Counted from the stretch's first letter, positions 4,219 through 49,823 are shown. The stretch: DNA of 64,000 nt from an uncultured Candidatus Saccharibacteria bacterium (GCA_964652835.1 CAZZCB010000002.1:584-64583); one strand, 5' to 3'. Notes: generated from the letters alone by a model not told the origin. Made by a program: numbers and translations.

Positions 4219-6867
4219 ATGAAAAAACAAGAATTCGAAGCTGGGAAGATTGTGGTTAAGGGTGCAAAGACTCACAATCTTAAAAATGTAAGCGTTGAAA
4301 TGCCACGAAATAAAATGGTGGTTTTTACTGGTCTTTCTGGTTCTGGTAAATCTTCTCTTGCTTTCGATACTATTTTTGCTGAAGGCCAAAGAAGATACGT
4401 TGAATCTCTTTCTTCTTATGCACGTCAGTTTCTTTCTCAAATGCCAAAACCAGACGTGGATGAAATCACAGGACTTTCTCCGGCTATTTCTATCGACCAA
4501 AAATCACGTTCGAACAACCCGCGTTCAACTGTGGCGACAATAACAGAAATCTACGATTATCTGCGTGTTCTTTATGCGCGTGTTGCCAGACCTTACAGTC
4601 CGATTTCAGGAAAAGAAATTAAAAAACTTTCAAACCAAGAAATCTCAGAATTTGTAAAAAACAAAATTAGAAGTTTAAAAAACTCTCCAAATAAAAAAGC
4701 GGTGATGGGTGTGGAGTACACAGAAGATTCTGTGCATATTTTCTCTCCAGTTGTTCGTGGACGAAAAGGCGAGTATTACCAAATGCTTTACGATTTCCTT
4801 GGCAAAGGATATTCAAAAGTTCGTGTGGACGGAGCGATAAAAAACCTACGCGACTCTATCGATTTATCAAAAAACAAAAAACACGAAATAGATTTGCTTG
4901 TAGATTCTTTTTCTTTTGGCGAAGCGCTGAACAGTACAGAAGATTTTGATATGCGACTTTCAGAAGCCATCGAGCGGGCGATCACAGAGTCAGATGGATT
5001 TGTACGTATTGTTGTTTCTGATTTCCATAACAAAGAAGAGGACAGAGAAAATATTTTAATGTCAGCAAAACTTATTTGCCCTGACGACGGTTATACTTTT
5101 CCAGAAATAGAGCCAAGACTTTTTTCTTTCAACTCACCATACGGAGCGTGTCCAGACTGTAACGGACTAGGAACTAAAAACTTTTTTGGTGATGAAGTTT
5201 GTGATACTTGTCACGGCGACAGACTCCGAGAAGAAGCTCTAAATGTTTTCTTGGGCGACCGAGAAAAAGGGATGAACATAGTAAAGTTCACAAATCAGTC
5301 TATTAAAGAAGCATATGATTTTATTACAAAAATAAAATTTACTAAAAAAGAAAAAGAAATCTCTATTTCTGTTTTGAAAGAAATTGAAGACAGGCTTCTT
5401 TTTATGCTTAACGTGGGACTCGACTATTTAACTCTAAACAGAAAAGCAAACACTCTTTCTGGTGGAGAATCTCAACGTATCAGACTTGCTTCACAGCTGG
5501 GGTCTCGTCTCGTGGGCGCTCTTTACGTACTCGACGAGCCGACTATTGGTCTTCACCAAAGAGACAACGACAAACTAATAAAAACCTTAGAAGACCTAAG
5601 AGATCTTGGAAATACTATAATCGTGGTTGAACACGATGAAGATACTATTTACGCGTCTGACTATATTGTCGACATCGGTCCGAAAGCTGGAGTTCATGGC
5701 GGGGAGATCGTCGTAGCAGATTATCTTGATAAACTTTTATCAGGAAAAGAAAATAAAACAAACTCACGAACAATAGCGTATCTTCGGGAAGAAGAAATTA
5801 TTCCTCTGCCTGAAAGTCGAAGAGATGCGAATAAAGGCTGGATAAAAATAAAAGGTGGAAAAATCTTTAACATAAAAAATATAAATGTTGAGATTCCGCT
5901 CGGCCGGATGACAGCCATAACTGGAGTTTCAGGATCTGGAAAATCTTCTTTCCTTTACGAGATTTTGCATAAAAACCTCCAAGCTCGTTTTGAAAGAAAA
6001 TACAGAAGCGCAAAAACTTTTAACTGCGCCGAATTTTCTGGAACAGAAAATCTAACACGCGCGATACTTATCGATCAGTCACCGATAGGTAGAACTCCGC
6101 GTTCGAATATTGCTACTTATACAGGAGCTTGGAGTCATATTCGTGATATGTTCGCTGCGACAGACGAGGCACGTTTCCGTGGCTTTAAAGCAAATAGATT
6201 TTCTTTTAACGTAAAAGGTGGAAGATGTGAAGCCTGTGAAGGAAAAGGTCTTCAGTCTGTGGAGATGCACTTTTTGCCGACAGTTTATGTGACTTGTGAT
6301 GTTTGTAATGGAAAAAGATTCGACAAAGAAACTCTAAAAGTAAAATACAAAGGTAAAAATGTTTACGATGTTTTGCGAATGACAGTCGAAGAAGGTTTGG
6401 AATTTTTTAATGACATTCCAGCTATTTACGACAGACTTAAAACCCTGTCAGATGTCGGACTCGCATATGTCGAGATTGGTCAACCGGCGACGACTCTTTC
6501 TGGTGGAGAAGCTCAACGTGTAAAAATATCTTCAGAACTTTATCGCCCAATGACAGAGCGAACTATTTACCTACTAGACGAGCCGACGGTTGGACTTCAC
6601 TATGATGACGTGGCGAATTTGATTTCAGTTTTAGATAAATTGGTTTATAAAGGAAATACAGTTGTGGTTATCGAGCACAACTTGGATCTTATAAAAGTCG
6701 TTGACTATATAGTAGACCTTGGACCTGAGGGAGGTGAAAATGGTGGAAAAATTATGGCAAAGGGAACTCCAGAAGAAGTTGCCGATAATGAAAAATCTCA
6801 CACTGGAACATATCTTCGAAAAACTTTGATTAAAACAAAAAGAGCGATGAAAAAAATTTCGAAGTAA
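4219..6867 (+). CDS. uvrA: Excinuclease ABC subunit A (UvrA).
   Basis: 882 aa. Two ABC ATPase modules ([10 protein letters not shown] and GVSGSGKSS Walker A, LSGGE signatures) and CxxC zinc-finger pairs. Confidence 0.95.
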
Positions 6868-40899: not shown

Positions 40900-41928
40900 A
40901 TGTCAGAATTAGCATTATATAGAAAATACCGCCCGTCAGCTTTCGATGAAGTTTTAGGGCAAGATCATATTGTTAAAGTTTTAAAAGGGGCTTTAAAGCT
41001 CGGGAATATTTCTCACGCATATCTTTTTCATGGACCGCGTGGTACAGGAAAAACATCTATCGCTAGAATCGTAGCGAGCGAGCTCGGCACGAAAGACCAC
41101 GATATTTACGAAATCGACGCCGCTTCAAATAGAAAAATAGAAGATATTAGAGAAGTTCGGGATTCGGTCCGAACGATGCCTTTTGATTCAAAGTATAAAG
41201 TTTATATAATAGACGAAGTGCACATGCTTACAAAAGAGGCCTTCAATGCACTTCTTAAAACCTTAGAAGAACCGCCAGCTCACGTAATATTTATTTTAGC
41301 TACGACAGAGCTAGATAAAGTTCCTGACACTATCGTTTCTCGTTGTCAAACTTTTACTTTTCACAAACCAACCATTTCTATCTTAAAAGATTTAGTTATC
41401 TCTATTGCTAAAAAAGAAGGAGTGGCGATAGACAATGCTGGAGCTGAGCTAATCGCTCTGCTTGGTGACGGGTCTTTCCGAGACACGCAAAGTACTCTGC
41501 AAAAAGTAATGTCTTTTTCTAAAGATAAGAGCTTAAGTATAAAAGAAATAGAAGAAGTGACAGGTGCGCCGAGCAGTGAGTTGGTAAATGATTTCATCCT
41601 TTCTTTGGTGGAAGGAGATTTACAAAAAGGTTTTCAGGCTTTAAAAAACGCTGAAGAAAAAAATATCGACATAAACACTTATCTAAAACTTATTTTAATA
41701 AAATTAAGATTAGCACTTTTGATGCGCTATGCTCCAGAGATGAAAAAAATCTTAGAAGAAGAGATTATAGATTCTGATAAAGAATTCTTCAAAGAAATAC
41801 TAAAAGATAAAAAGGGAATAATTACTTCGAAAACATTAGAGACGTTGCTTGAAGCAGAAAAGCAAATAAAACACACTTTTGTTAAAAGTCTTCCCTTGGA
41901 AATGGCTTTAACTAAGATTATTTCTTAG
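40900..41928 (+). CDS. dnaX: DNA polymerase III subunit gamma/tau, short form.
   Basis: 'YRKYRPSAFDEVLGQDHIVKVL...HAYLFHGPRGTGKTSIARIVA', DExx box 'KVYIIDEVHMLT', SRC motif 'VSRCQTFTF'. Only domains I-III (342 aa). Confidence 0.8.
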   Translation: MSELALYRKYRPSAFDEVLGQDHIVKVLKGALKLGNISHAYLFHGPRGTGKTSIARIVASELGTKDHDIYEIDAASNRKIEDIREVRDSVRTMPFDSKYKVYIIDEVHMLTKEAFNALLKTLEEPPAHVIFILATTELDKVPDTIVSRCQTFTFHKPTISILKDLVISIAKKEGVAIDNAGAELIALLGDGSFRDTQSTLQKVMSFSKDKSLSIKEIEEVTGAPSSELVNDFILSLVEGDLQKGFQALKNAEEKNIDINTYLKLILIKLRLALLMRYAPEMKKILEEEIIDSDKEFFKEILKDKKGIITSKTLETLLEAEKQIKHTFVKSLPLEMALTKIIS

Positions 41929-42027: not shown

Positions 42028-44223
42028 ATGTTTAAAAAAATAATATATATCCTAACTATCATCGCGCTCTTTGTATTTCAACCGAATACCATGAGCGCTT
42101 CGGTTGAAAATATCACCATCCTTAGTAAAAGCAATGACGGTGTTTTGGGAAACTCTCATTCATCCGACGGTATGTTGTCTAAGGATGGAAATTTTGTTGT
42201 ATTTATTTCGCAGGCTTCAAACTTGGTTGCCGGGGACACAAATGATTTAGCGGATGTGTTTGTATATGAAATAGAGACTGATACAGTTGAAAGAGTAAGT
42301 ATTAGTACTCTTGGTGTTGAATCAAATGGCGAATCTTTTGATGCAGACATGTCTGGAGATGGAAGATATGTTGTTTTTGTTTCTGGTGCTACAAATCTTG
42401 TACCCGGAGATACAAATGGTGATGATGATATTTTTATTTACGATAGAGATACTAACTCTATTGAGATCGTAAGTATTGGATTGGGTGACGAAAAAACATC
42501 CTCAGTATCCTCATCCTCAGATGGTGCATCAGCGATGCCATCAATATCTTTAAATGGAAGGTATGTTGTATTTGAATCTGTTGCCACTAACCTAATTGAA
42601 GGTGACACCAACGGTGAAAGTGATATTTTCATTAGAGATCTTCTGTTAGATACTACTGAAAGAGTTAGTATTACTAATGAAGGAAATGAGGCTGTTGGCT
42701 ATTCTGTCGCCCCAGCAATGTCAAGCGATGGAAGATATGTTTCTTTTTTATCAGAGGATAATACTCTCGTCTCCGGAGACACAAACGCTCTTTCAGATTA
42801 CTTTGTAAGAGATCTGTTGCTCAATACTACTGAAAGGGTAAATGTTAGTTCAGAAGAAGTAGAGTCAAACGGTTTATTGTCTACGGTTACAAGACATGGT
42901 ATTTCAAATGATGGAAGATATGCTGTATTTTCTTCTTTGGCCACAAATCTTGTACCTGGAGATACAAACGGAGTTGATGATATTTTTGTTCGCGATATAG
43001 AGATTGGTACGACAGAGAGAATAACACTAAGACCAGATGGAACTGAGGCTAGCGACACTACCACAACTTTCCCCTCAGGAATTTCATCTGATGGTAGATA
43101 TGTTTCTTTTTATTCTGGTTCACCACAGTTTGTTGAAGGGGACACAACGTCTGGCGAGTATAATTATGACGTTTTTGTTAGAGATTTATTGCTCGATACA
43201 ACTAGAAGAATTAGCTTATCTCAAGATGGAGAAGAGGGGAATGCTGGTTCATATGCATCCGTGGTGTCACTAACCGACGGGGGAAGGTATGCGGTATTCA
43301 ACTCAGGGGCAACCAACTTTGTGGAAAACGATATAAATGCCGTAGATGACGTTTTTCTTGTTGAGATATCAGATGAAGATGGAATATCGTCTGTTATTGA
43401 AAATGCGGCACCAAATACAGGAGATATAGATGAGAACGGGTACATTGATTCAATTGAGCAGAATGTTTCTTCTTTTGTTAATTCCGTTTCTGGAAATTAT
43501 ACTTCAGTTGTTACAACAGGCGATTGCTTCTATAATTCAAATCTTAATTCAGAGGCAGAATCAGAACTTGCATCAGAAGACGCAGAATACGACTATCCTT
43601 TGGGAATTATTTCTTTCGAAGTTAATTGTCGAGAAGCAGGTGAGACAGCAACAGTTTCTGTTTATTGTTTCTGTAATCAAACACCACTAGAAGGCTTGGT
43701 TGCTAGAAAATACGACCCAGATACTGGTGAATACACGACAATAGAATCTGCCGTTATCGAAGAAGTAACTATTGACGGTCAAAGAGCTTTGAAGATGACA
43801 TATGATGTTGTCGACGGTGGATCTTTAGATGAAGATGGTCTTGAAAATGGTACTATTATCGACCCAGTTGGATTTGCCAAGCCGGCTGCCGTCGTGCCGG
43901 CGAGTAGTTCTGGAAGTTCAAGTTCTTCTGGATCAAGACCAAGAATAAATTTAATTGCTCAAGCTCCAGTACAAAACACATCAAATGATGTTTGTGTAAA
44001 ATCTTCATTCAAAACTTTAATGAAAAAAGGTTCTAAGTTTGGTGAAGTTTCAAGACTACAAGAAGTTTTAAATGCTTCGGGCTTTAACTCTGGCATCGTT
44101 GATGGACTTTTCGGACCGATGACAGACCTAGCTGTAAAAGCTTTCCAAACAGAAAACAGCCTAGATTCTGATGGTATCGTTGGGCCGATGACGAGAGGGG
44201 TTTTGAATTTGAAGTGTTTGTAA
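42028..44223 (+). CDS. Secreted 7-bladed beta-propeller (PD40/TolB-like repeat) surface protein with a canonical C-terminal PG_binding_1 domain.
   Basis: Signal anchor. Seven about-48-aa repeats 'S.ATNLV.GDTN...DIFVRD....TERVS'. 'SSSGSSSSSGSRPR', then 'FGEVSRLQEVLNASGFNSGIVDGLFGPMTDLAVKAFQTENSLDSDGIVGPMTRGVL'. Confidence 0.75.
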   Translation: MFKKIIYILTIIALFVFQPNTMSASVENITILSKSNDGVLGNSHSSDGMLSKDGNFVVFISQASNLVAGDTNDLADVFVYEIETDTVERVSISTLGVESNGESFDADMSGDGRYVVFVSGATNLVPGDTNGDDDIFIYDRDTNSIEIVSIGLGDEKTSSVSSSSDGASAMPSISLNGRYVVFESVATNLIEGDTNGESDIFIRDLLLDTTERVSITNEGNEAVGYSVAPAMSSDGRYVSFLSEDNTLVSGDTNALSDYFVRDLLLNTTERVNVSSEEVESNGLLSTVTRHGISNDGRYAVFSSLATNLVPGDTNGVDDIFVRDIEIGTTERITLRPDGTEASDTTTTFPSGISSDGRYVSFYSGSPQFVEGDTTSGEYNYDVFVRDLLLDTTRRISLSQDGEEGNAGSYASVVSLTDGGRYAVFNSGATNFVENDINAVDDVFLVEISDEDGISSVIENAAPNTGDIDENGYIDSIEQNVSSFVNSVSGNYTSVVTTGDCFYNSNLNSEAESELASEDAEYDYPLGIISFEVNCREAGETATVSVYCFCNQTPLEGLVARKYDPDTGEYTTIESAVIEEVTIDGQRALKMTYDVVDGGSLDEDGLENGTIIDPVGFAKPAAVVPASSSGSSSSSGSRPRINLIAQAPVQNTSNDVCVKSSFKTLMKKGSKFGEVSRLQEVLNASGFNSGIVDGLFGPMTDLAVKAFQTENSLDSDGIVGPMTRGVLNLKCL

Positions 44224-44245
44224 GAAAGTAAAAGTTAGATTATAA

Positions 44246-44286
44246 AAAGCTCGGGGCGCGCTTCGCGCGCCCCAAGCTTTTTTATT
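44246..44286 (+). terminator. Rho-independent terminator (AGCTCGGGGCGCGC-ttc-GCGCGCCCCAAGCT followed by TTTTTT).
   Basis: 14-bp GC stem plus T-run. Confidence 0.8.
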
Positions 44287-44341
44287 TAAAATATGATATA
44301 AAAAATAAGGAAGCACAAAAATCACCAAAACACATAAGGCC

Positions 44342-44659
44342 ATGGTACAATACAAAATCAAGATCGAGCCTTCAGTACTTGCCGATTCAAAAGGCAAGAA
44401 AGATCTGGTACTGGTGGCGGTGGGTAAACATCAGATTTCTCGTGAAGGGGAGTGTCTTAGCCTTCGCACCAATTACCATGTTACAGTCATCGATGACGAG
44501 GGTTTGCGGTGCCCAGGTCAAACTCTTCGTGTCGATGTGCCACGCGAAGGTGGATACACCATTATCTTGGGGCATCCAGACGGAGCCTCGAGGGAGGTTA
44601 CAGACGAGGAGCTTTCAGGGTTGACCTTTGAGTTCGTCTCAAGCGAGGTGACACTTTGA
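44342..44659 (+). CDS. Hypothetical protein (higher-GC ORFan).
   Basis: 105-aa ORF followed by the terminator GAGCGCCAGA-tttc-TGGCGCTC plus T6 at about 44678-44710. Confidence 0.35.
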   Translation: MVQYKIKIEPSVLADSKGKKDLVLVAVGKHQISREGECLSLRTNYHVTVIDDEGLRCPGQTLRVDVPREGGYTIILGHPDGASREVTDEELSGLTFEFVSSEVTL

Positions 44660-44828: not shown

Positions 44829-44899
44829 TGCCGGATCGTCTAATGGTAGGACTCTGGTTTTTGGTACCAGCTATCTAGGTTCGAGTCCTAGTCCGGCAG
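44829..44899 (+). tRNA. tRNA-Gln (anticodon TTG).
   Basis: Acceptor TGCCGGA/TCCGGCA, U8, D-arm GTC-TAATGGTA-GAC, anticodon stem CTGGT/ACCAG with loop TTTTGGT, T-arm CTAGGTTCGAGTCCTAG. Confidence 0.8.
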
Positions 44900-45104
44900 C
44901 AGCCAAGTGAGAGCTATCGAGACTCTTAAAATCGCTATATTTTCCAAAGCATTTTAAGAACGAGTCATGGGCACGAACCCTCCAAAGGGGGTGTCCTAGA
45001 CTCTTCAAGTTTCGGTAGAAATCAAAGGTAACTATTCCGCACATTGCATACCTGCTGAGAGCAGTATCCAGAACAGAAAGCCATCTGAGAAGGTGGTTTT
45101 TTGT

Positions 45105-45139
45105 TTGACTTGCACTATACCCCCTAGGGGTATATAATG
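45105..45139 (+). promoter_or_regulatory. csoR-cop promoter with an embedded CsoR-type operator (perfect IR TATACCCCC-TA-GGGGGTATA).
   Basis: -35 TTGACT/TTGCAC, -10 TATAAT at about 45133-45139. The 20-bp GC-tract inverted repeat at 45116-45135 sits in the spacer and overlaps the -10. It resembles known CsoR operators (ATACCC...GGGTAT). Confidence 0.6.
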
Positions 45140-45421
45140 CTAAGTATGAAATATATGGAAGATAAAAGTAAAGGAAAGATTATCCGTCGCCTCAAGCTTA
45201 TCGAGGGGCAGATTCGAGGCCTGCAAAAGATGATTGAAAGCGATACCTACTGTATTGACGTGATCACCCAAACCTCTGCGGTCAAGCAGGGACTTTCCAA
45301 TGTGGAAGACTTACTGCTCGAAAATCATCTTGGTGGATGCATCCTGAATCAGGTGAAAGCTGGACAGACTGAAAAGGCAAAGCAGGAAATTTTAAAAGTT
45401 TATAAGCTAAAGAGAAAATAA
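45137..45421 (+). CDS. csoR: CsoR/RcnR-family copper-sensing transcriptional repressor.
   Basis: '[52 protein letters not shown]' carries the conserved Cys...His...Cys metal ligands of the DUF156 family. Confidence 0.8.
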
Positions 45422-45425
45422 TTTT

Positions 45426-47720
45426 ATGCACACACAGACATATAACGTAAAAGGAATGCATTGTGCCTCATGCTCATCTGTTATTGAAAAAACATTTAAG
45501 AAAGTCGAGGGGGTGCATTCTGCGGAAGTGAACTATGGTACAGAAAGGGCGAAGGTTTCCTTTGATCCTTCAAAAACCAGTCCTCATGACCTCTCTAAGC
45601 ATATCGAACCTCTCGGGTATTCTCTTGAGGTTCCCGAGACAGCGAACGAGATGGGTATGTCCGAAAGCGAACATGCGGCACATCTAGGGCTCAACCAATC
45701 TAAGAAAGAAAAACTTGCTGAGGTTAGTGATATGCGAACGAAAGTTCTCTCTGCAATTCCGCTGGCAGTTTTTGCCGCTTTCGTTATGGGTTGGGATATT
45801 CTCGCTGAGTACAGCATCGTTCCTGCAATGAGTTATACGCTCAAGGAATTCTTTCATCATCTCCTTCCGATATTTGCCACTTATATCCTTTTCGTCGTAG
45901 GTAAGCCGTATCTTCTCGGCTTTTATAGGTTTCTTCGATACGGTAAAGCGAACATGGATACGCTTATCGGTATCGGTACGGTAGCCGCCTTTTTATACAG
46001 CTTCGCTGTCAGTGCACTTGAGGACGTTCTTAGTCCGTTTATTAATGTCGAGTACCAATACTACGACGTAACGATTGTTGTTATCACCTTTATTGCACTC
46101 GGTAAGTACCTTGAAGCAAAGTCTAAAATTAAGACAGGTGATGCAATCGAGAAGCTTCTCAACCTTCAGGCGAAGACCGCTCTTGTTGTTCGTGATGGGA
46201 AGGAAATCGAGATTTCAGTGAATGATGTTAAGCATGGCGATTTCATTATTGTTAAGCCAGGTGCAAAGATTCCTGTTGATGGCGTTATTACTGAAGGGGC
46301 ATCTTTTGTTGACGAATCGATGGTTACAGGGGAACCGATGCCTGCCCAGAAAAAGATTGGTGACAATGTCGTATCGGGAACAATAAATACAAGCGGATCG
46401 TTCACTTTTAAAGCCACAAAGGTCGGATCAGAAACTCTTTTGGCTCAGATCATAAAGATGGTTGAGGACGCACAAGGAAGCAAGGCTCCCATACAGGCAC
46501 TGGCAGACAAAATATCAGCAATTTTTGTGCCCATAGTTCTTGTAATTGCATTCCTTAGTCTCGGCACATGGCTTATTGTCGGGTCGCAATATCTCGGATT
46601 TTCTCAGGCACTTTCATTTGGTCTCGTATCTTTTGTAGGAATTCTAGTGATCGCCTGTCCGTGTGCACTCGGACTTGCTACTCCAACCGCAATCATTGTG
46701 GGAGTCGGCAAAGGTGCTAAGGAAGGTATCCTCATCAAAGATGCGGCTACTCTCGAAAAGCTTCATAAGGTAAACACTATCGTCGTTGATAAAACAGGCA
46801 CAATTACAAAAGGCAAGCCGACACTTGTCGACATACAAAACTTATCTAGCTTAAAAGATGATGAACTTGTTTCAATCCTTGCCTCACTTGAGAAGAAGTC
46901 AGAGCATCCGATCGCGCACGCAATCGTAAATTATGCACAGGAGAAAAATATCTCAATATCTGATGTTTTCAATTTTGAAGGAATACAAGGAAAGGGTCTC
47001 AAGGGTGAGATCGGTGACACTGAGTATTTTGCAGGAAACGCAAAACTTGTGAGTGACCTCAAGATTTCATTTGACGCTGGTAAGTTAGATAAGTTCACTT
47101 TGCAGGGAAAGACACCTGTGATTCTTGCAACCAAAGAGAAGGTTCTTGGTTTCGTAATGGTGGCAGATGAGATCAAAGAGGAGTCAGTAGATGCTATTAA
47201 AAACCTCCATGCACTCGGTATTAAAGTGGTTATGCTTACCGGTGATGATGAGAAAGCTGCAAAGTATATCGGATCACTCGTTGGTATCGACGATGTTGTA
47301 GCCCATGTATTGCCACAAGATAAGCTTGAGAAAATAAAGGAGTTACAATCGCAAGGTCGCATTGTTGCAATGGCGGGAGATGGCGTGAATGATGCCCCTG
47401 CACTTGCCCAAGCCGATGTGGGTATTGCCATGGGGACGGGTACTGACGTGGCGATCGAGTCAGCAGGCATTACCTTGCTTGGCGGTGATATTTCAAAGCT
47501 GGTTAAGGCCATTAAGCTTTCCAAGATAACCATGCGAGGAATCAAGCAAAATCTTTTTTGGGCATTCATCTACAATGTTGTCGGTATACCGCTTGCGGCA
47601 GGAGCTTTCTATCCAATCTTCGGTTGGCTTCTGAATCCCATCTTCGCTGGCTTTGCCATGGCGATGTCGTCGGTCTCCGTGGTATCAAATTCACTTCGAA
47701 TTAAAGCTAAGAAATTATAA
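45426..47720 (+). CDS. copA: Copper-translocating P1B-type ATPase.
   Basis: N-terminal HMA '[12 protein letters not shown]', TM 'CPC' motif '[11 protein letters not shown]', 'DKTGTIT', '[10 protein letters not shown]'. Confidence 0.95.
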
Positions 47721-47722
47721 GC

Positions 47723-48730
47723 ATGAAAACACACACATTACACGTATCGGGTACACATTGCGCATCTTGCAAAATCTTGATTGAGGATATTTTGAATGAG
47801 CAAGACTTCATACAAAACGTTCGGGTTGATTTAAAGAAGGAAATTGTAGAAGTAGAAACTAATAGTGAGGAGTCTCCTCTAAGATTGGCGGAGATATTGA
47901 CTGATAAAATAAAGTCCAACGGCTACGTGCTTTCAGTTGCAAAGACTGTCAAGGAAAAACAGGTAGATGATGTTATTTGGAAGGCGTTGCCAATCGGTCT
48001 AGGCATTCTCATCCTCTTTTTCTTGCTACAGAAATCAGGGATTCTTAATCTCGGAATCGGGGGACAGGTCACACCAATCACAAGTTTCATTATCGGTCTC
48101 ATCGCTTCGGTTTCAAGTTGTCTCGCTATAGTTGGAGGATTGGTTTTGTCTCTTTCGGCAAAGATATCTCAAGACAATGTTAGCGACACGAAAACATTCC
48201 TGTTATTTCACACAGGAAGAATTGTCAGTTTCGCGGTCTTAGGTGGTGTGCTTGGAGTTGTAGGAAGTGCTATTGGAATCAACTTTACGCTTACCGCAGT
48301 CTTGGGACTTTTAGCCGCACTCGTGATGTTGTTGCTAGGTCTGAATTTGGTCGGAGTTTTTGCGAAGAATAAAATCGCTTTGCCGTCTGGAATTTTCAAC
48401 TTCTTTAGAAGGATTGAACACAAGACTTTTACACCTCTCATCCTCGGCTTCGCCACGTTTTTCCTACCATGTGGCTTTACGCAGTCGATGCAGGTTTCGG
48501 CGTTAGGTAGTGGGTCTTTTGGTTCAGGAATGCTAATTATGCTCGCCTTTGCCCTTGGTACATTGCCGATGCTACTGCTCCTCTCATTTGGATCTGCATC
48601 CTTTGCACATGGAAAAAACGCGCCTTTATTTTTCAAATCTGCCGGTATTGTAGTAATCGGTCTTGGACTGTTTGCACTACTTGCAGGCTTGGCTGGACTG
48701 GGAATTATCAATCCATTATTTAATATATAA
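47723..48730 (+). CDS. HMA (heavy-metal-associated) domain fused to a DsbD_2/CcdA-like membrane thiol-transporter domain.
   Basis: N-terminal 'HVSGTHCASCKILIE' (HMA). Polytopic membrane domain with conserved Cys in TM segments ('SVSSCLAIVGG', 'FFLPCGFTQSMQ'). Confidence 0.6.
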   Translation: MKTHTLHVSGTHCASCKILIEDILNEQDFIQNVRVDLKKEIVEVETNSEESPLRLAEILTDKIKSNGYVLSVAKTVKEKQVDDVIWKALPIGLGILILFFLLQKSGILNLGIGGQVTPITSFIIGLIASVSSCLAIVGGLVLSLSAKISQDNVSDTKTFLLFHTGRIVSFAVLGGVLGVVGSAIGINFTLTAVLGLLAALVMLLLGLNLVGVFAKNKIALPSGIFNFFRRIEHKTFTPLILGFATFFLPCGFTQSMQVSALGSGSFGSGMLIMLAFALGTLPMLLLLSFGSASFAHGKNAPLFFKSAGIVVIGLGLFALLAGLAGLGIINPLFNI

Positions 48731-48737
48731 TTACTTT

Positions 48738-49139
48738 ATGAACAAAACCGCTTCAATCATTATTACTTTAGCCCTTGTGGTAGGTCTCGGCATCATATTT
48801 GTTGGTGGATCAAAGCAAAAAATATCTGATACCACTTCAATACAGCAAGCCCAAAACGTAGAGATACGAGATGGTGTTCAATATATAACGATTGATGCTA
48901 AGGGTGGATATTCTCCAAAAATATCTTCTGCCAAAGCAGATATTCCTACCAAGCTTGTCGTTAAAACAAACGGCACCTATGATTGCTCATCATCCTTGGT
49001 GATCAAATCTATTGGATACCAGAAAGTCCTAGCTCAAACTGGAGAAGAAGTTATTGATATAGGCACGCCCAAATCTGGAGTTCCACTTCAAGGAGTTTGT
49101 GGTATGGGAATGTATAACTTCTCGATCAGTTTTTCTTAA
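48738..49139 (+). CDS. Periplasmic cupredoxin-like (Met-rich) copper-binding protein.
   Basis: Signal anchor. 'YITIDAKGGYSPKISSAKADIPTKLVVKTNG...CGMGMY' resembles the cupredoxin_1-type domains found in cop operons. Confidence 0.5.
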   Translation: MNKTASIIITLALVVGLGIIFVGGSKQKISDTTSIQQAQNVEIRDGVQYITIDAKGGYSPKISSAKADIPTKLVVKTNGTYDCSSSLVIKSIGYQKVLAQTGEEVIDIGTPKSGVPLQGVCGMGMYNFSISFS

Positions 49140-49788
49140 GGCAAGTAGATTTGCTTTTCTTTAAGTAAAATCTTGCTCTTAAAACAAGTAAGCAGTTCTC
49201 GTTTCTCTTCGATTGATCCATCTTTCAAAATAAACTTGGCGTAGTCTCTGATGTCTACGTCTTTTATCTGTATCTGTTGTTTAGTATTCAAAACTGACTG
49301 ATTGAATCGTTTGATTCTTTCAACTTCATATTTGATTTTCTCTTTCATCCCAATCTCATTGATATTTACTTGATCAATCAACTTTTCAAATTGCTGTATT
49401 AATTCAATCTCGTTTATATACCCACACTTACAATTTTTATCTTTAGATCTAGTACATCCATAATAGATATGCCTATTTACTGATCCGTCTTTTAGCTTTT
49501 TAAATTTTTCATCGGCACAGATTCCTGATCCACAAAGTCCACAAGTCATCATTTTTGTAAAAGCGAATTCTTTTGGTTCCTGAGTTCTAAGAACTTGGCT
49601 TTTCGTTTGTTCTTGAACCATATCAAAAAGATCTTTATTAATTATCGGCTCATGTTTTCCTGTATAAAAGTTTCCGCTTTTTCGTGGATATTCAAAAACC
49701 CCATAATAAAATGGATTTTGAAGTATGAGATAAATATTACTAAGAGTAAGACCTTGGTTTAAGCAAGGATAGTCCTTGCTTAAAAATT
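49136..49788 (-). pseudogene. Truncated large serine recombinase (C-terminal recombinase plus zinc-ribbon part only; catalytic resolvase domain missing).
   Basis: The ORF-track 161 aa carries 'CGLCGS...RHIYYGCTRSKDKNCKCG' (recombinase zinc ribbon). In-frame translation upstream of its Met continues '...LILQNPFYYGVFEYPRKSGNFYTGKHEPIINKDLFDMVQ' (recombinase-domain consensus) up to a stop at about 49788. There is no start codon and no N-terminal Ser-catalytic domain. Confidence 0.7.
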
Positions 49789-49823
49789 GACGTCATTACC
49801 ACCGCTTGTTACAATTTAATTAT

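Follow-up and report, generated by a model that had tools for sequence, protein, structure and literature searches.

A probable grounded and chimeric remnant of a phage-related serine-recombinase element, carrying copper genes, beside tRNA-Gln in Patescibacteria

We analyzed an islet of copper genes in a 64,000-nt stretch of DNA (the window; GCA_964652835.1, CAZZCB010000002.1:584-64583, deposited as uncultured Candidatus Saccharibacteria bacterium), where csoR, copA, a gene for an HMA-DsbD_2 membrane protein (dsbD below) and a cupA-like gene lie between tRNA-Gln(UUG) (44829..44900, + strand; found by ARAGORN and scoring 58.3 bits with Rfam) and a partial large serine recombinase (LSR) gene (49136..49759, - strand). 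The region is most probably the grounded and chimeric remnant of a phage-related LSR element beside tRNA-Gln, with copper genes as its cargo; the 3' end of the tRNA gene is the left junction of the element (the attL side). Such a grounded integrative element is ordinary in kind, but this one comes from an undescribed family of Patescibacteria elements: in the literature on Patescibacteria prophages, serine integrases and copper we found no description of it, and a study of Paceibacteria prophages and islands (PMC12455944) does not mention copper, integrases or tRNA. What makes the case interesting is the element family itself, the sweep of one copper cassette across lineages, and the constraint on truncated integrases.

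The copper cassette and its mosaic right end

By its flanking ABC-F gene the host falls among Patescibacteria, with Paceibacteria/Nomurabacteria-like metagenome-assembled genomes. In the closest genome (L001; compared genomes and contigs are given as L numbers), whose ABC-F protein is 94% identical to the window's, a homologue of the gene at 40900-41928 is followed by tRNA-Gln, 667 bp and the ABC-F gene, with neither cop genes nor a recombinase between tRNA-Gln and ABC-F. This is an empty site, so that the synteny comparison proposed in a first-pass annotation of the window did turn up a close relative lacking the cluster; cop genes and recombinase are likewise missing from most of 80 syntenic loci.

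The exact 764-aa CopA of the window is encoded by nine other contigs, from independent assemblies and with differing flanks, and 44.9-48.74 kb of the window is 99.6-100% identical in DNA to the copies in those contigs. The csoR gene is 100% identical in nine other contigs and the HMA-DsbD_2 gene 100% identical across L081-L088. The shared DNA starts abruptly, directly after the tRNA 3' end (...GGCAG, then CAGCCAAG), where it opens with an element-derived trailer of the long T4 type (44901..45110, + strand) that is 98-100% identical to those of L081, L083, L084, L087-L089, L108 and L197. While the cassette is thus nearly 100% identical elsewhere, the flanking ABC-F gene shares only 76% of its nucleotides, and 82% of the encoded amino acids, with that of L081, a different species; it follows that the copper genes arrived very recently. 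The identical cassette stands in at least six distinct flank contexts, among them tRNA-Gln(UUG) on the left with other host genes on the right (L081 and L083), an adjoining tRNA-Gln(CUG) (L216), an S66 peptidase and a NUDIX gene upstream (L084), and MazG, PyrG, FtsX and FtsE downstream (L085), and flank GC content ranges widely (0.36 in L081, 0.40 in L084, 0.505 in L085). At the level of sequence, this is direct evidence for a recent spread of the copper cassette, unchanged, between quite different host lineages.

Base composition divides the islet at the same place. The block 44900-48740 has a GC content of 0.433, above every one of 515 equal-length background windows (mean 0.386, sd 0.017, maximum 0.425), and GC at third codon positions is 0.41-0.46 for csoR, copA and dsbD, compared with 0.33 on average for the window. 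No rise is seen in the cupA-like gene and recombinase fragment (GC 0.343), so the elevated GC that had been ascribed to the islet as a whole belongs to its left part only.

The reference for the right part is L082, in which the same cassette is followed by a full-length recombinase. Identity to the L082 family drops from ~100% to ~71% within 48733..48745, at the dsbD/cupA boundary, a mosaic breakpoint visible in tile identities, in the pairwise alignment and in the segment table; beyond it the cupA-like gene has 71%, and the recombinase remnant at most 66%, nucleotide identity to that family. The trailer is also at odds with the recombinase, since T4 trailers accompany an L082-type LSR in six of the seven T4 loci, the window with its L008-type remnant being the sole exception, while the L008-type lineage normally carries a T3 trailer. 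Together, the identity break and the mismatch of trailer and LSR show that the cupA-like gene and the remnant come from another element lineage and that the window is chimeric. The window-type LSR lineage also bears cop operons, in L102 and L172. Two independent assemblies (L090 and L091) repeat the order dsbD 3' end, cupA', rec', m138, m92 and ABC-F, and because they reproduce both the junction and the right flank the arrangement is not a mis-assembly; L088 and L089 match the left part of the islet, from the trailer to copA or dsbD, at 99.7-99.9%.

Just 5' of tRNA-Gln (42028-44659) are genes for a 731-aa protein with PD40 repeats and a peptidoglycan-binding region and for a 105-aa open reading frame (ORF; GC 0.50, no family match). 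Neither is found in L001, so the other side of tRNA-Gln is variable too. An Rfam scan of the window put only two tRNAs above threshold; its sub-threshold hits (Phe_leader, RNAI and RybB, all with E >= 3) were noise.

The recombinase remnant and its intact relatives

The frame of the remnant is open from 49136 to 49786 and contains an ATG-started ORF at 49136-49621 (161 aa); homology to full-length enzymes begins at 49759. What is left corresponds to residues ~233-441 of the L008 enzyme (full enzymes have 441-446 aa) and runs from the last part of the recombinase domain through zinc ribbon and coiled coil to the C-terminus. PF07508 matches at profile positions 42-100 of 102 (its last ~60; 33.9 bits), the first part of the domain being deleted, and the PF13408 zinc ribbon scores 28.5-29.2 bits against a cut-off of 25.3, its cysteines (CGLCGSG and CTRSKDKNCKCG) being invariant throughout a cluster of sequences at 90% identity. 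The Resolvase catalytic domain with its serine nucleophile (PF00239), which the intact L082 (3.7e-19), L086 and L008 enzymes have, is not in the window fragment; the loss of the N-terminal catalytic domain noted in the first-pass annotation is thereby borne out, and the window gene is a remnant and no enzyme. Its amino acid identity is 82% with the intact enzymes of L008 and L184 and 55-57% with that of L082; its best NCBIfam match is CcrB (3.5e-11), far under the model cut-off. The deletion junction at which recombinase homology ends (49760..49786) holds a hairpin (AGCAAGGACTATCCTTGCT, 49762-49780), and immediately beyond it a promoter-like TTGACG-17-TACAAT (49787-49815) lies 5' of a 138-aa membrane ORF, where host-assigned DNA resumes.

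Intact relatives show what has been lost. Behind the same cassette, L082 and L086 encode a full LSR of 446 or 443 aa, with Resolvase, Recombinase and Zn_ribbon domains and a match to the phrog_95 integrase family (6e-64), whose gene overlaps the 3' end of cupA with its own 3' end. Past the LSR, L082 encodes TerL (phrog_38, 4.8e-79), a TerS candidate (4.2e-09), two DNA methyltransferases (one fused to ParB), an excisionase-like helix-turn-helix protein and a helicase; in the shorter contig L086 only a TerL homologue (51% amino acid identity) is reached. The methyltransferase-TerS-TerL-LSR module recurs in IMG/VR contigs with LSR identities of 43-88%, and a 25.5-kb viral contig (L222, IMGVR_UViG_3300014205_009253) has two LSR-TerL-TerS-methyltransferase modules about 17 kb apart. 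These are separated by a methyltransferase and cargo of unknown function, and no att-like motif, trailer motif or T-arm was found between them. Terminase genes are present in the intact relatives only, with none in the window, and the elements read contain no primase, only helicase-like cargo or restriction subunits.

We take these to be compact phage-related integrative elements whose LSR inserts at the 3' side of tRNA-Gln in Paceibacteria-like members of the Patescibacteria. The intact order would be tRNA-Gln, a trailer with hairpin and terminator, a cargo slot, a convergent LSR gene overlapping the last cargo gene, TerL, TerS, the ParB/DNA-methyltransferase genes and, at the far end, a pseudo-tRNA stub with another trailer. 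Its left portion (tRNA-Gln, motif, 0-6 kb of cop or defense genes, convergent LSR) is seen at dozens of loci. Unrelated cargo genes end inside the last recombinase codons in L224, L225, L226, L230, L082 and the window (49136-49139); the convergent overlap is 4-14 nt, often exactly 8, and the last ~8 recombinase residues vary with the cargo. This suggests a cargo boundary at the recombinase stop codon, and since the last cargo gene mostly overlaps the LSR 3' end in this way, the slot between LSR and trailer is a site of cargo exchange.

Truncation of the recombinase has recurred. L081 and L087 match L082 at 100%, and L085 at 99.9%, as far as three different breakpoints within the LSR gene (L082 positions 4497, 4579 and 4972), and L108 has a fourth LSR breakpoint. 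The clade of the window's remnant has seven different truncation endpoints, at residues 206-277, each beside different cargo: the copper genes of the window, type III restriction-modification, Eco57I/MmeI-type restriction-modification with SNF2 helicases, AIPR abortive infection with restriction-modification, and an HSP70-like/AAA cluster are among them. A truncation point shared by the window and L121 was considered and rejected, as the breakpoints lie ~4 codons apart and the upstream DNA is unrelated.

It can be asked whether the truncated recombinase is a retained, functional protein, for example one that binds att DNA and blocks or steers integration and excision at tRNA-Gln. We consider this rather unlikely, as we do the broader form of the idea, in which a domesticated C-terminal LSR half is kept by selection beside the cargo slot in many Patescibacteria. 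Over 125 codons shared by four differently truncated copies, dN is 0.003-0.017 at a dS of 0.64-1.40, giving nonsynonymous to synonymous ratios (dN/dS) of 0.005-0.017, as expected of a protein under constraint; within this region, each of the 12 members of the 90%-identity cluster is short yet uninterrupted. The catalytic domain is missing from every one of the best 120 database homologues (55-96% identical), some of which are on contigs of 30-790 kb, and no intact enzyme closer than 82% identity was found. The comparison of the fragment with intact enzymes gave no ratio, synonymous sites being saturated (proportion of differing synonymous sites, pS, 0.78-0.93). Against function stand the at least seven endpoints within the clade and the truncated copies of the L082 clade that are 99.9-100% identical to the intact gene: so many endpoints and such near-identical intact copies imply frequent and sometimes very recent truncation, in which case a low dN/dS can have come down from intact ancestors. 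Moreover, the remnants of L121/L195 and L085 are frameshifted, no promoter signal rises above chance, and the database is biased, because short contigs cut genes and remnants bearing stops escape retrieval. The low dN/dS could equally result from frequent, very recent truncations of circulating intact genes combined with that bias. Were the remnant functional, it might act as an att-site-binding guard against integration or excision by related elements, or form part of a fixed 'landing pad', with the invariant trailer hairpin, that allows copper-resistance and anti-phage cassettes to be exchanged.

Element ends, proposed history and alternatives

The trailer between tRNA-Gln and csoR measures 210 nt and contains an invariant 21-nt hairpin motif (CATACCTGCTGAGAGCAGTAT, 45047-45067) and an intrinsic-terminator-like hairpin with a T-run (about 45080-45103). 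The exact 21-mer occurs in at least 120 metagenome contigs; among the matches listed it usually lies 50-150 nt after tRNA-Gln (UUG or CUG), and a single contig (L165, about 550-700) has the motif downstream of tRNA-Trp(CCA). Very often a convergent LSR homologue follows, either directly (+67-74 nt) or past 1-6 kb of cargo. In the window and in L102-L221 a conserved CTATTCCG box comes before the hairpin and a terminator after it. The variable upstream part of the trailer comes in discrete types, which go with LSR lineage; this fits its carrying recognition sequences. The trailer matched nothing in Rfam, and RNAalifold found no covariation signal in 45 trailer 3' regions, among which the invariance of the hairpin was imposed by the search requirement; a compensatory pair was seen only in the second copy in L190, a motif variant with two compensatory stem changes.

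L190 contains an entire copy of 12.65 kb between direct repeats of 58 nt. At one end are tRNA-Gln, trailer and motif, adjoining the LSR; the other end, attR, is marked by a decayed pseudo-tRNA stub, together with the same 58 nt of trailer and the motif variant. Characterized LSR cores span 2-12 bp, and the identical segment shared by the L190 ends is much longer. L191 and L217 have the stub joined to the LSR-proximal arm, an attP-type junction. Upstream of the identical cassette, L084, L087 and L088 have three different tRNA-like stubs, in which neither ARAGORN nor Rfam detected a tRNA or tmRNA.

Two further arrangements were observed at such ends. Directly after tRNA-Gln(CUG), L008 has a second tRNA-Gln-like sequence (about 5780-5895) whose D-loop is split by a ~45-nt GC-rich hairpin, and which may be a pseudo-tRNA, an att relic or an unusual intron. 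In L178 (716-6700) and L116, a diverged cop cluster has a copy of the ~150-nt long trailer on either side, both in the same orientation; a tRNA-acceptor-like stub comes before the second copy, and no recombinase lies between the two. This looks like a cassette bounded by att-type repeats.

The window itself has no comparable right end. The direct repeat of the tRNA-Gln 3' end that had been predicted near the recombinase failed to appear, either in 44-51 kb or in the whole window, at up to 3 mismatches in 22 nt, and matches of 14 nt were at chance level; the junction sequence had no exact match in IMG/VR. Judging by the relatives, integration would have taken place at the exact site in the window, and its attR was probably deleted together with the 5' half of the recombinase gene.

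The simplest history, in three steps, would account for these observations as follows. An older element of the L008/T3 lineage may have resided at tRNA-Gln, probably with a cop operon of its own; the 5' ~53% of its integrase gene, and all DNA past that point with attR, would by then have been deleted. A circulating element of the L082/T4 lineage would then have brought the near-identical trailer-csoR-copA-dsbD block to the same tRNA-Gln, and a recombination event joining the two cop operons at the dsbD/cupA boundary would have removed the incoming integrase and terminase genes along with the left half of the resident. As an outcome the copper cargo would be fixed in the chromosome, excision being no longer possible without a working integrase. 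The order of these events and the exact crossover point are inferred.

Several points weigh against a phage-related element with this history. No capsid, portal or tail genes were seen in the DNA read around intact copies (12.6 kb of L082, the complete 12.65-kb element of L190 and 21.5 kb of L222), so that besides a phage the element could be a satellite or another terminase-carrying element. The window has no att direct repeat or pseudo-tRNA stub; the L084, L087 and L088 stubs are read only tentatively as attP or tandem-array junctions; and the integrative crossover is placed no more finely than the interval from the tRNA 3' end to the hairpin. The trailer motif is also present in L032 and L039, whose short available flanks contain no recombinase, so that part of the trailer could be host-encoded. 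The order of events proposed is one of several possibilities, and copper resistance of the host is a predicted phenotype.

Among other accounts of the locus, a single old island, vertically inherited with one history from csoR to the recombinase fragment, is very unlikely. It would explain why cupA' and the remnant diverge about as much as the host flank does (71% vs 76% of nucleotides) and why L081, from a different species, also has a cop islet between tRNA-Gln and ABC-F. However, it does not explain a trailer-csoR-copA-dsbD block 99.6-100% identical in contigs whose flanks are unlike the window's, flank similarity to L081 and L083 consisting of the 76%-identical ABC-F gene; nor does it fit the sharp identity break at 48733-48745, the disagreement of trailer type with recombinase lineage, or the absence of the islet from the closest genome. 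The remnants of L081 and the window, moreover, are of different LSR lineages (55-58% amino acid identity) and are cut at different points. The first-pass annotation had proposed an old integrated mobile island: the remnant of a site-specific element at tRNA-Gln was recovered, whereas its being single and old was contradicted by the cassette identities and the chimeric structure.

Next, the cop operon might be native host DNA, with an unrelated prophage integrated beside it and the recombinase fragment marking that neighbor's edge. Diverged clusters are indeed common in the clade near the same genes, sometimes without a recombinase, as downstream of ABC-F in L010, L011 and L017 and in the 1-Mb contig L150. 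Yet the identical cassette occurs in unrelated contexts, starts abruptly at the tRNA 3' end and differs from the host in GC content. In addition, the overlap of its 3' gene with the recombinase 3' end leaves no room for an intervening att site, while other family members hold other cargo in exactly that slot; we regard native origin as highly improbable. A metagenome assembly chimera, in which the identical 3.8-kb repeat joined flanks of two genomes, is scarcely credible: the block is an exact repeat common to several genomes, a typical cause of mis-joins, but the left flank (the 40900 gene and tRNA-Gln) and right flank (ABC-F) are neighbors in L001, L090 and L091 span dsbD 3' end to ABC-F, and L088 and L089 match the left part.

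Copper genes, known systems and meaning

The cargo of the proposed grounded element is predicted to be a copper-efflux module, with copper resistance as the phenotype expected from family knowledge. The profile matches bear out the gene identities given in the first-pass annotation, as well as its description of four tightly packed genes, all on the + strand (gaps of 1-10 nt). CsoR, the copper-sensing repressor (45137..45421, + strand, 94 aa; PF02583, 84 bits), has alternative starts at 45146 and 45155 and a C-H-C set readable in the translation (C39, H64 and C68), which we take to be the copper ligands as in the family; its best NCBIfam match is RicR-like. Just 5' of csoR, overlapping a TATAAT box, lies a GC-rich palindrome (TATACCCCCTAGGGGTATA, 45116..45134), which from known CsoR biology may be a CsoR operator. 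It is one G shorter in the window (C5-TA-G4) than in all other copies of the cassette (C5-TA-G5), which could be a real regulatory change or a homopolymer error in assembly.

CopA (45426..47720, + strand, 764 aa) is assigned as a P1B-1 Cu(I)-exporting ATPase by TIGR01511 (599.5 bits, clearing a cut-off of 397) and has the Pfam domains E1-E2_ATPase, Hydrolase and HMA; an N-terminal HMA CxxC and the motifs CPC, DKTGT, HP, YN and MxxSS are readable in it. The HMA-DsbD_2 membrane protein (47723..48730, + strand, 335 aa; PF13386, 112 bits; PF00403, 39 bits) is annotated in the sources as 'sulfite exporter TauE/SafE/CopZ'. The last gene (48741..49139, + strand, 132 aa) encodes a putative membrane-anchored, cupredoxin-fold Cu(I) chaperone with a hydrophobic N-terminus. 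It aligns with Streptococcus pneumoniae CupA (PDB 2MRY/4F2E, E = 4.7e-07), including the Cys and the CGMGM (CxMxM) motif, and scores 26.4 bits with Pfam Cupredoxin_1, slightly under the cut-off of 27. Having three Met among its 132 residues and no His, it is a CupA homologue and not the Met-rich protein it had been called. The window's allele is divergent (73% amino acid identity to the L082-family copy), and an exact look-up returned no record of it.

In the proposed mechanism, repression by CsoR would act at the palindrome overlapping the -10 box until Cu(I) released the repressor; derepressed CopA would then export Cu(I), with the CupA-like chaperone and the HMA-DsbD_2 protein expected to deliver copper or handle it at the membrane. 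Copper clusters recur around the ABC-F/tRNA-Gln neighborhood in related genomes: diverged csoR-copA-dsbD-cupA clusters (56-76% amino acid identity) are found in L010, L011 and L017 (about 11.5-21 kb) and in L014 (0.6-5.2 kb), sitting across the ABC-F gene or beside an oppositely oriented tRNA-Gln(CUG).

The copper operon invites comparison with copY-cupA-copA of S. pneumoniae (4F2E, 2MRY), with which it shares a membrane-anchored, cupredoxin-fold Cys...CxMxM chaperone beside a P1B-1 CopA and a copper-responsive repressor. It differs in having CsoR in place of CopY, another gene order, an extra HMA-DsbD_2 protein, and a CopA whose N-terminus is of the classical HMA type and not cupredoxin-like.

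As a mobile element, the locus resembles grounded prophages and tRNA islets with decayed integrases in its tRNA-side insertion, the retention of cargo with deletion of mobility and packaging genes, the truncated integrase, the empty site in relatives and the deviating base composition. Those usually have a tyrosine integrase, whereas the window has an LSR, no tRNA-derived repeat left, a chimeric makeup from two lineages, and cargo near-identical across flank GC contents of 0.36-0.50. The element is phage-related, with terminase genes in its relatives, and is not a classical tyrosine-integrase island. With the LSRs of phages and SCCmec (the phiC31, Bxb1 and A118 integrases; CcrB), the intact relatives share the Resolvase-Recombinase-zinc ribbon order and an integrase gene close to one element end; they are unlike them in the small size of the enzyme (441-446 aa) and its targeting of the tRNA-Gln 3' flank, and the window copy in its lack of the catalytic domain. 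The closest analogue is found in the Prochlorococcus tycheposons and phage-inducible chromosomal island (PICI)-like elements (bioRxiv 10.1101/2020.12.28.424599), which have in common with the present family their streamlined hosts, tRNA integration and compact elements, niche cargo including metal homeostasis, or defense, some terS genes, tandem arrays, and fragmented integrases and partial tRNAs left behind. Of the 937 tycheposon elements, 910 use tyrosine recombinases (bioRxiv 10.1101/2020.12.28.424599); the present family, in contrast, is all LSR, has no identified replication module (primase or helicase-primase) and has a core of TerL, TerS and ParB-methyltransferase, a conserved trailer hairpin by the att region, and Patescibacteria hosts.

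The route that we propose is one by which LSR elements would drop copper-efflux, restriction-modification and abortive-infection modules by tRNA-Gln, with the host then deleting the mobility genes. A 3.8-kb cassette with essentially no substitutions across flank GC contents of 0.36-0.50 points to copper stress as a selective agent in these habitats. The integrases and att pairs of the family could serve as tools in a phylum currently without a genetic system, and the conserved truncated integrases and invariant hairpin raise the question of whether hosts have co-opted parts of mobile elements.

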